DNA of 59,821 nucleotides from a virus: the IMG/VR virus record IMGVR_UViG_3300037714_000050; one strand, 5' to 3'. This document shows positions 58,653 to 58,788 of this stretch, piece after piece. The stretch's first letter is position 1. Each line of letters begins with the position of its first letter. The position numbers and the translations under genes were made by a program. The notes under the pieces are model-generated. The model saw nothing but the letters and a program-made list of their open reading frames with translations. It ran no database searches and was not told the origin of the DNA.

Positions 58653-58788
58653 CCTGATGGGTCGAACGGAACGCCGGTTACTCCTTTCACGAGAGGAACG
58701 CAGGTTCGAATCCTGCCGGGGGAGTTAGCTTCCCCGTCGTCCAGCGGCCTAGGACACTTACCCCGGCTCCACTCACACATCCAGCAGG
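58653..58788 (+). ncRNA. Y RNA-like module 1: permuted tRNA-Glu(UUC)-like apical domain
   Basis: H1 CCUGAU/AGCAGG and H2 GCCGG/CCGGC. Anticodon-loop-like CUUUCAC. T arm GCAGG-UUCGAAU-CCUGC. Acceptor CGGGGGA/UUCCCCG closed by the loop GUUAGC. D arm GUCC-AGCGGCCUA-GGAC. Confidence 0.7.

Follow-up and report, generated by a model that had tools for sequence, protein, structure and literature searches.

A probable YrlA-type RNA module with a permuted tRNA-Glu(UUC)-like domain in a phage array next to a Ro60 gene

Module 1 and its genomic setting

Y RNAs and the Ro60 protein are conserved from bacteria to humans, and the origin of the bacterial tRNA-like Y RNAs from tRNA has so far been a proposal. 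Here we analyse module 1, the first of ten putative RNA modules that lie ahead of a Ro60 gene (rsr) in the IMG/VR virus record IMGVR_UViG_3300037714_000050; the whole record, 59,821 nucleotides (nt) long, was analysed and is called the window below. Module 1 occupies positions 58653-58788 on the + strand, and an earlier note, made from the letters alone, had read it as a permuted tRNA-Glu(UUC)-like domain. Among Y RNAs, the YrlA class, present in bacteria and mycobacteriophages, is defined by a position beside rsr, a terminal stem that bears the motif GNCGAAN0-1G, YUAY, then the less conserved ‘V’ stem-loop and, after it, the T arm, an acceptor-like stem that is closed, and the D arm (Chen et al. 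2014, PMC4201824). The class is further marked by binding to Rsr in vivo and by tRNA modifications (pseudouridine 55, dihydrouridine). The L-shape of the YrlA domain has been solved, YrlA is said to lack an anticodon loop (Wang et al. 2018, bioRxiv 10.1101/312249), and both an origin from dimeric tRNA transcripts and the likeness to permuted tRNA genes have been discussed (bioRxiv 10.1101/312249). YrlA RNAs are also chromosomal in many bacteria (PMC4201824). Several Y RNAs are processed from one precursor in YrlA systems: in Mycobacterium smegmatis, YrlA and YrlB come from a single precursor, and YrlA, which has a 7-base-pair (bp) acceptor stem, is cut by RNase P and receives a CCA tail in vivo (PMC4201824).

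All parts of module 1 lie on the + strand. The 5' strand of the terminal, presumed Ro-binding stem (Ro stem), CCUGAUGGGUCGAACGGAACGCCGGU (58653-58678, pairing with 58757-58788), holds GUCGAACG (58661-58668), a GNCGAAN0-1G motif as defined in PMC4201824, and ends in the GGU of a conserved GGUUAC (58676-58681). Where the ‘V’ stem-loop stands in YrlA follows an anticodon-arm-like hairpin, UACUC-CUUUCAC-GAGAG (58679-58695), with its loop at 58684-58690 and the triplet UUC at 58686-58688. The four nucleotides GAAC (58696-58699) are equivalent to a variable loop with A46 and C48 and, as in tRNA-Glu, no position 47. Next come the T arm GCAGG-UUCGAAU-CCUGC (58700-58716), the acceptor 3' strand CGGGGGA with G73 (58717-58724), the loop UUAGC (58725-58729) that closes the acceptor stem, the acceptor 5' strand UUCCCCG (58730-58736), the U8-C9 dinucleotide UC (58737-58738), the D arm GUCC-AGCGGCCUA-GGAC (58739-58755) and A26 (58756). 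The order within the 78-nt insert is hence anticodon-arm relic, 4-nt variable loop, T arm, capped acceptor stem, D arm. The 3' strand of the Ro stem (58757-58788) consists of a CUUACC linker, CCGGC, the motif CACAUCC and CAGG, with the end CACAUCCAGCAGG; its conserved CUUA/CUAA lies opposite the conserved GGUUA of the 5' strand. Every string listed by the earlier note was found at the place given for it.

The first 127 bases of the window are identical to its last 127 (1-127 and 59695-59821), an exact repeat that indicates a circular assembly or terminal redundancy. The array therefore abuts rsr, and module 10 and the approach to rsr cross the junction. Modules 2-10 occupy 58789-59821 (+), with module 10 running on as window positions 1-125, and the modules carry heads of the form GGGYCGRA at 58659 (module 1), 58806, 58885, 58976, 59125, 59278, 59391, 59513, 59648 and 59761. 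No + strand open reading frame (ORF) of at least 80 amino acids was found across the array region. Between array and rsr lies a terminator-like hairpin read from the sequence, GAGUGGCCC...GGGCCACUC then GUUCUUUCU (133-171, +), and a similar hairpin occurs at the equivalent place in the related locus L084. The rsr gene (184-1887, +) encodes a Ro60 orthologue with TROVE and Ro60 von Willebrand A (vWA) domains (Pfam vWA_Ro60 6.5e-57, TROVE 2.3e-44). It stands on the same strand about 1.2 kilobases (kb) downstream of module 1 and about 60 nt after the end of the array.

Upstream, a Band-7/SPFH gene (57706-58605, +; Pfam Band_7 1.4e-24) stops 47 nt before module 1; this neighbour is not kept in the related loci examined. 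A promoter-like TTGCGC-17 nt-TAGGTT (58615-58643, +) stops 9 nt before module 1. Its hexamers and 17-nt spacing are kept in the two closest relatives, L001 and L084 (TTGCGC-17-TAAGTT), with a different spacer sequence; a strict sigma-70 consensus scan did not list it, conservation being the sole basis for proposing a promoter. The window is actinophage-like and has the marks of a phage genome (ERF, DnaB, endolysin, Ltp and Acb2/Tad1-like genes; G+C 64.5%), and homologues of its Rsr, at no more than 46% identity, are annotated as Ro-like RNA binding protein in 353 deposited actinophage records. Among 50,697 phage records megablast found nothing that matched the array, and blastn with the module core in named phages gave no full-length match, only T-arm-level matches and a lead to a Mycobacterium abscessus prophage.

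Relation to YrlA RNAs and to tRNA-Glu

The architecture of module 1 is that of a YrlA. It has rsr within about 4 kb on the same strand, the motif in the terminal stem, the order T arm, acceptor stem, D arm, and GGUUAC followed by a hairpin, a succession found also in the published-type phage YrlA of Catera and in 14/14 aligned homologues. The scaffold of Catera YrlA, GGUUAC...hairpin...T arm...acceptor stem...D arm...GCUUAAAC, is shared down to the GCUUAAAC...CCGG 3' junction. Like YrlA (Rfam RF02553), module 1 also keeps the tRNA tertiary-contact nucleotides: U8, A14, G15/C48, G18-G19, U54/A58 and G53-C61 can all be read in its sequence. The permuted layout itself is thus no invention of this phage, since it is already the published YrlA architecture, with the hairpin included as the ‘V’ stem-loop (PMC4201824). 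What sets module 1 apart from published YrlAs is that its D arm, its UC (not UA) at positions 8-9 and its 4-nt NRAC spacer (not 5-nt RGGUC) are those of tRNA-Glu, that its hairpin bears the tRNA-Glu anticodon loop whereas YrlA has been described without one, and that it sits in an unusually large phage array of ten modules. In the literature searched, an incomplete set without the 2014 supplements of PMC4201824, there was no description of Glu-type YrlAs or of such arrays.

Module 4 (58988-59088) has the canonical YrlA form and gives a sub-threshold match to the Rfam YrlA model (30.3 bits). It is without a separate hairpin: the Ro stem passes through AUCGCUU/AAGCGAU into CCAGG/CCUGG, an anticodon-stem equivalent that abuts the D arm and a 5-nt variable loop. 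The Ro stem does therefore join the tRNA-like domain at different points in modules 1 and 4, as had been claimed.

Put back into tRNA order, the parts of module 1 give 73 nt that ARAGORN calls tRNA-Glu(ttc), while 0/2000 shuffles were called a tRNA. Among cyclic rotations of the 78-nt insert, only rotations 41-54 are called, i.e. those that open the capped acceptor stem. In native order, 58653-58788 gave no tRNA match with ARAGORN at default settings or with the Rfam tRNA model, and at a relaxed ARAGORN threshold a poor cloverleaf can be drawn for 58651-58723 (73 nt). Among the fetched loci about ten modules are called tRNAs in native order at default settings. We initially considered the ARAGORN call as evidence for an anticodon arm but dropped it, given that hairpin-less module 4 is called too and that 39/40 re-joined modules are called, with many anticodons.

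Alignment is more specific. Against genuine actinobacterial tRNA-Glu(UUC), module 1 aligns without gaps and is collinear at all 73 positions, 59/73 of them identical; outside the 24 positions fixed by the search pattern the identity is 35/49. Most mismatches are compensated stem changes. Positions 8-26 are identical throughout (19/19) to genuine Actinomycetota tRNA-Glu(UUC), which bears out the D-arm likeness that the earlier note had pointed out. The hairpin is collinear with tRNA-Glu positions 27-43, with an identical CUUUCAC loop, and the spacer reads GAAC against UAAC. Module 1 carries the whole Glu-specific body, i.e. U8-C9, a D arm of the form GUCY-AGNGGCCYA-GGAC with U11-A24, a 4-nt variable loop and CUUUCAC, and in common with the Actinomycetota tRNA it has G73 as discriminator and an acceptor core of CCCC/GGGG. 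At least 120 bacterial genomes have genuine tRNA-Glu(UUC) genes with the same D arm and loop, and among the matches listed nearly all are from Actinomycetota. In blastn against the 50,697 phage records, only annotated tRNA-Glu genes align over the acceptor, D and anticodon parts. The 24 nt at 58700-58723 are generic, being identical to actinobacterial tRNA-Arg 3' ends and attP cores.

Isotype profile hidden Markov models (HMMs), built from genuine tRNAs of the fetched loci, point the same way. Module 1 scores best with Glu at 38.4 bits, followed by Arg at 18.0 bits, although the Glu reference tRNAs were partly fetched with the Glu-type D-loop pattern, so that the score may be inflated, a point to be held against the assignment. 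The Glu signal sits in positions 1-26, and the 5' half scores against the Glu profile only. Module 4 (Met 26.7 bits, next Pro 25.9) and the Catera YrlA domain (Thr 35.6 bits, next Arg 30.7) have no clear isotype. The domain of module 1 shares 59/73 identities with real tRNA-Glu, 46 with the Catera-type phage YrlA and 34 with module 4. The reading as a permuted tRNA-Glu(UUC)-like domain is borne out by the isotype HMM and by the gap-free 73-position alignment, and the similarity to tRNA-Glu genes, for which an alignment had been asked, is far beyond chance on the identities and the shuffles.

With all tRNA-Glu elements present in permuted order, and a re-joined sequence called tRNA-Glu(ttc), module 1 might be a genuine circularly permuted tRNA-Glu gene that matures to a chargeable tRNA as in Cyanidioschyzon merolae, and the RNase P cut and CCA tail of M. 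smegmatis YrlA in vivo would fit such a gene. As described in 10.1101/312249 (citing Soma et al. 2007), the permuted tRNA genes of C. merolae and some archaea do resemble module 1 in having the 3' half upstream, the acceptor stem first closed by a loop and transcript ends that pair. However, the C. merolae type yields working tRNAs by splicing-type excision and circularisation, and module 1 differs in that its break lies at 26/27 rather than in a loop and that its relatives have no conserved anticodon. The splicing endonuclease and circularisation pathway that would be needed is not known in bacteria (10.1101/312249), and a bulge-helix-bulge motif at the 26/27 junction was not evident by eye, no formal search having been made. 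The anticodon stem is moreover degenerate (U.G, A.A, 3 bp), the same Glu-type body occurs in relatives with many triplets, UCA and UGA included, and module 1 is set in a Ro-binding stem beside rsr. We regard a permuted gene as highly improbable. Compared with the tRNA itself, module 1 is permuted, its acceptor stem is closed by UUAGC without free ends or CCA, its anticodon stem is down to three Watson-Crick pairs, and the whole is embedded in a Ro-binding stem.

A linkage of Band-7, Rsr and YrlA has been reported in literature cited in 10.1101/312249. The b7a-tRNA, by its description, is likewise a tRNA-like non-coding RNA immediately after a Band-7/SPFH gene and beside Rsr; unlike module 1, it is described as an authentic-like, unpermuted tRNA.

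Folding, covariation and related modules

The structure that RNAfold predicts for module 1 (-52.3 kcal/mol, z = -2.1) contains the terminal stem, the T arm, the closed acceptor stem and the D stem. Seven bp make up the acceptor stem, with a possible G73-C pair that brings it to 8 bp in the RNAfold prediction. These helices are kept through compensatory change in a 14-member MAFFT alignment of homologues: 94% of cells are paired in the nine outer pairs of the Ro stem, with two-sided changes in 6/9 of them, 100% in the T arm (3/5 pairs compensatory) and 97.5% in the acceptor stem (5/6 aligned pairs compensatory), and the D stem is likewise kept through two-sided changes. The inner three pairs of the anticodon-like hairpin also covary among relatives. 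For the structure as a whole 86% of cells are paired, compared with 34-51% in slid controls, and 0/500 shuffles match the observed values.

Such conservation, which holds for every helix over about 30 homologues, argues against a functionless, decaying remnant of two tandem tRNA-Glu genes, as does the conserved Rsr linkage. A tandem of tRNA-Glu genes with a short spacer would yield this order of parts, and the phage's own tRNAs are 1 nt apart. The Ro-stem strands, tried as the rest of a tRNA-Glu dimer, were rejected as such: their resemblance to the missing tRNA-Glu parts is not significant, with 600 and 1342 of 2000 shuffles scoring as high. We give the remnant next to no credence.

Related modules were sought in viral contigs with a pattern in which a Glu-type D loop comes 24-36 nt after a T loop. 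This returned 40 stretches, of which about 27 are distinct permuted Glu-type modules and the remainder ordinary tandem tRNA genes; metagenomes added at least about ten further Glu-type modules, the matches listed there being mostly tandem tRNA genes. Most Glu-type modules are followed, on the same strand and within about 1 kb, by a full-length Rsr homologue, and in the closest relatives Rsr identity is 65%. The M. abscessus prophage prophiGD43A-5 has an array of five modules ahead of its Ro gene, of which one is Glu-like (CUC-CUUUCCA-GAG, an AGAC spacer and a Glu-type D loop). The homologues, which the earlier note had proposed to compare, keep the helices by compensatory change and the Rsr linkage but not the UUC triplet.

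Across 61 modules, the spacer before the T stem ends in RAC in 22/25 with a Glu-type D arm and in 0/36 with a generic one (Fisher p = 1e-13, a value inflated by relatedness among the sequences). The spacers are 4-nt NRAC with Glu-type D arms and mostly 5-nt RGGUC with generic ones, and the 8-9 dinucleotide is UC/UG against UA. Loop positions 32, 33, 37 and 38 are C, U, a purine and A/C in 27-31 of 34 modules. Hairpins whose stems cannot slip (L077, L085, L089, L069, L091, L093 and L267, and the generic L011, L063 and L070) fit only a 7-nt loop on a stem of at most 5 bp, and the loop CUUUCAC appears again in the independent lineage L329.

Several observations weigh against reading module 1 as a YrlA-class RNA with a tRNA-Glu domain and an anticodon-arm hairpin. 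The minimum-energy and centroid folds take a slipped tetraloop, UCCUUU-CACG-AGAGGA, in place of the 7-nt loop on CUC/GAG (-5.7 against -1.6 kcal/mol, i.e. better by 4.1 kcal/mol); the CUUUCAC loop that the earlier note had placed on CUC/GAG is therefore identical to that of tRNA-Glu but is not the minimum-energy fold. The anticodon-like stem has three Watson-Crick pairs only, the outer two ‘pairs’ of a proposed 5-bp stem being U.G and A.A, and the latter (28-42) is never a standard pair in the 14 relatives. On those sequences pair counts do not tell the two registers apart, and RNAalifold leaves the hairpin unassigned. The UUC triplet is replaced in the closest relatives (UGA in L001 and L084, UCC in L077), and across the family it varies among UUC, CUC, UGA, UCA, UCC, GCU, CAA, GUC and others. 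Judged from sequence, the conserved UUA may also pair with the 3'-side UUA/UAA, which would make the Ro stem the structural equivalent of the anticodon stem. The Rfam YrlA model gave no match to module 1 at E <= 10 nor to its homologues L001, L084 and L077 at E <= 0.01. Finally, no RtcB, RNA ligase or PNPase was found among the 20 window ORFs scanned against Pfam.

The Rfam model is narrow, because published-type phage YrlAs too score only 36-52 bits against an RF02553 gathering threshold of 69 bits; its failure argues against a seed-like sequence and not against YrlA architecture. The metazoan-type Y_RNA model (RF00019) likewise gave no match at E <= 10 in 58500-59821.

The folding and register results and the variable triplet would suit an ordinary YrlA whose ‘V’ hairpin takes the tetraloop fold, with CUUUCAC a by-product of the pyrimidine-rich 5' strand and the D arm alone Glu-like; the ARAGORN call, made for hairpin-less module 4 as well, says little on the anticodon arm. 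We nevertheless consider this unlikely. The gap-free alignment to tRNA-Glu takes in the loop, the 4-nt spacer and the length of the stem; where stems cannot slip only the 7-nt loop fits, and loop positions 32, 33, 37 and 38 are kept; spacer length and sequence follow the D-arm type exactly as in real tRNAs; and CUUUCAC recurs in independent L329, with CUUUCCA in prophiGD43A-5. From the non-slippery stems, the loop positions, the tie between spacer and D arm and the CUUUCAC of L329 it follows that the hairpin is collinear with tRNA positions 27-43 and that the true variable loop comes next. The break at 26/27 that the earlier note had placed there holds as a statement of homology, but sequence cannot place the hairpin or the Ro stem at the anticodon-stem position in three dimensions.

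As the triplet in the loop differs between relatives, selection probably does not act on the anticodon as such. That an anticodon-loop shape (C32, U33, R37, A38) is kept family-wide while the triplet varies widely would suit tRNA or anticodon-stem-loop decoys, with the array as a panel that soaks up host tRNA-targeting defence nucleases or toxins and Rsr protecting or delivering it. A phage setting and a ten-module array would fit counter-defence, module 3 bears only a hairpin of this kind with a Ser-GCU-like loop (CAGA-CUGCUAA-UCUG), and an Acb2/Tad1-like anti-defence protein is encoded in the same genome. However, no known nuclease target can be matched, the weak 3-bp stem of module 1 is a poor mimic of an anticodon stem-loop, and a decoy role is less obvious for the YrlA RNAs that are chromosomal in many bacteria (PMC4201824). 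Decoys therefore seem quite improbable to us.

Interpretation, other modules and further features

On this evidence we think it likely that module 1 is a phage/bacterial Y RNA of the YrlA class, the promoter-proximal unit of its array, with a whole permuted tRNA-Glu(UUC) between the strands of its Ro stem. At the level of sequence and covariation, the Ro stem, T arm, acceptor stem, D stem and retained L-shape nucleotides are established, and so are the Glu identity of the D arm, 8-9 dinucleotide and variable loop and the Rsr linkage in about 30 related loci. Compared with the published generic YrlAs, it is the isotype-specific (Glu) tRNA-like domain that looks new. The comparison further suggests that the YrlA ‘V’ hairpin is a relic anticodon arm, because D-arm type and the spacer ahead of the T stem go together.

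By analogy with known systems, the array would be transcribed as one RNA, starting at the promoter-like TTGCGC-17-TAGGTT, and then be divided into single Y RNAs, as happens with M. smegmatis YrlA and YrlB. The bulged terminal stem with GNCGAAN0-1G would be bound by the phage Rsr, and the tRNA-Glu-shaped domain could recruit or occupy a protein that reads the tRNA elbow and D arm, a partner through which Rsr would be linked, during infection, to the metabolism of tRNAs or to damage done to them. Since the acceptor stem has 7 bp, as in M. smegmatis YrlA, its cap is probably opened by RNase P.

Because the domain is nearer to tRNA-Glu (59/73) than to module 4 or Catera on homologous scaffolds, its most likely source is a tRNA-Glu gene or tandem, from which it would have come into the YrlA scaffold separately from generic domains such as that of module 4. 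The repeated capture of tRNA parts onto a common scaffold, as earlier envisaged, is plausible to the extent that separate tRNA inputs onto one scaffold fit, but gene conversion by a tRNA-Glu gene, or convergent mimicry, could also account for the data. A more far-reaching combination strikes us as doubtful: that YrlAs are whole tRNAs repeatedly captured at 26/27, that their ‘variable arm’ is the anticodon arm, that module 1 is a Ro-tethered tRNA-Glu which, once opened by RNase P and given a CCA end, is recognised isotype-specifically (by GluRS, for example, or by an enzyme that uses glutamyl-tRNA or a nuclease directed at tRNA-Glu), and that the array is an isotype-specific panel of surrogates for infection.

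Recognisable element by element as one tRNA, module 1 would be the clearest sequence evidence so far for a tRNA origin of these Y RNAs. The ‘V’ stem-loop of YrlA could then be re-labelled as a relic anticodon arm, and the search for partners would narrow to proteins that read the tRNA-Glu D arm and elbow. Multi-module arrays ahead of Ro genes in actinophages point to an unexplored phage action on host tRNA biology. For annotation, the consequence is that tRNA finders and GenBank annotations miscall the 5' parts of modules as tRNA genes, e.g. a ‘tRNA-Thr’ of prophiGD43A-5.

That ‘tRNA-Thr (tgt)’ (L340 1313-1391; MW584167.1 26001-26079) is the 5' part of a YrlA-type module and contains a Ro-stem strand, the hairpin ACCA-CUUGUAA-UGGA, the T arm and the acceptor 3' strand, with a closed acceptor stem and D arm after it. 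Among deposited phages the closest Rsr match is in Gordonia phage Mareelih (L098), where a tmRNA and eleven tRNA genes come after the Ro gene (4263-6509), and a sub-threshold YrlA match at 5222-5321 (52 bits) overlaps an annotated tRNA-Leu(gag), which may be a miscall.

Within the array itself, module 3 (about 58879-58958) consists of only the anticodon-like hairpin, whose loop recurs in L087, L065 and L057; module 8 (about 59507-59630) has a T arm and a long GC hairpin, whereas modules 2 and 10 are short. The linker ACAACUUCA/ACAACUGAA, a possible processing signal, is found repeatedly between modules and again in L001, L084 and L087. A second group among the Glu-type modules (L087, L065, L069, L070, L073, L078, L079, L082, L091, L093, L221, L248, L267, L269 and L278) carries the 5' stem motif CCCGGUGCGMAGG in place of GGGUCGAA and has clean 5-bp stems with 7-nt loops. 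About 1 kb downstream of these modules there is weak, partial tblastn similarity to the window Rsr (31-35%, about 130 amino acids), and the group may serve a divergent TROVE/vWA protein.

Elsewhere in the window, a protein with an Acb2/Tad1-hairpin domain (anti-CBASS/anti-Thoeris sponge family) is encoded at 3015-3521 (+), two genes after rsr, and an Rv2179c-like 3'-5' exoribonuclease at 46737-47288 (+), about 11 kb upstream of the array; a connection of either with the Ro/Y RNA system is conceivable. Three tRNA genes, Tyr-GTA, Gln-CTG and Cys-GCA, lie at 4199-4435 (+) with 1-nt spacers, the Rfam tRNA model finding only the third at gathering. A permuted T-acceptor-D unit could arise from tRNA tandems as tight as these. 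Mid-genome, at 33578-33639 (+), there is a match to the type II hammerhead ribozyme, with 40.8 bits against an Rfam gathering score of 37.

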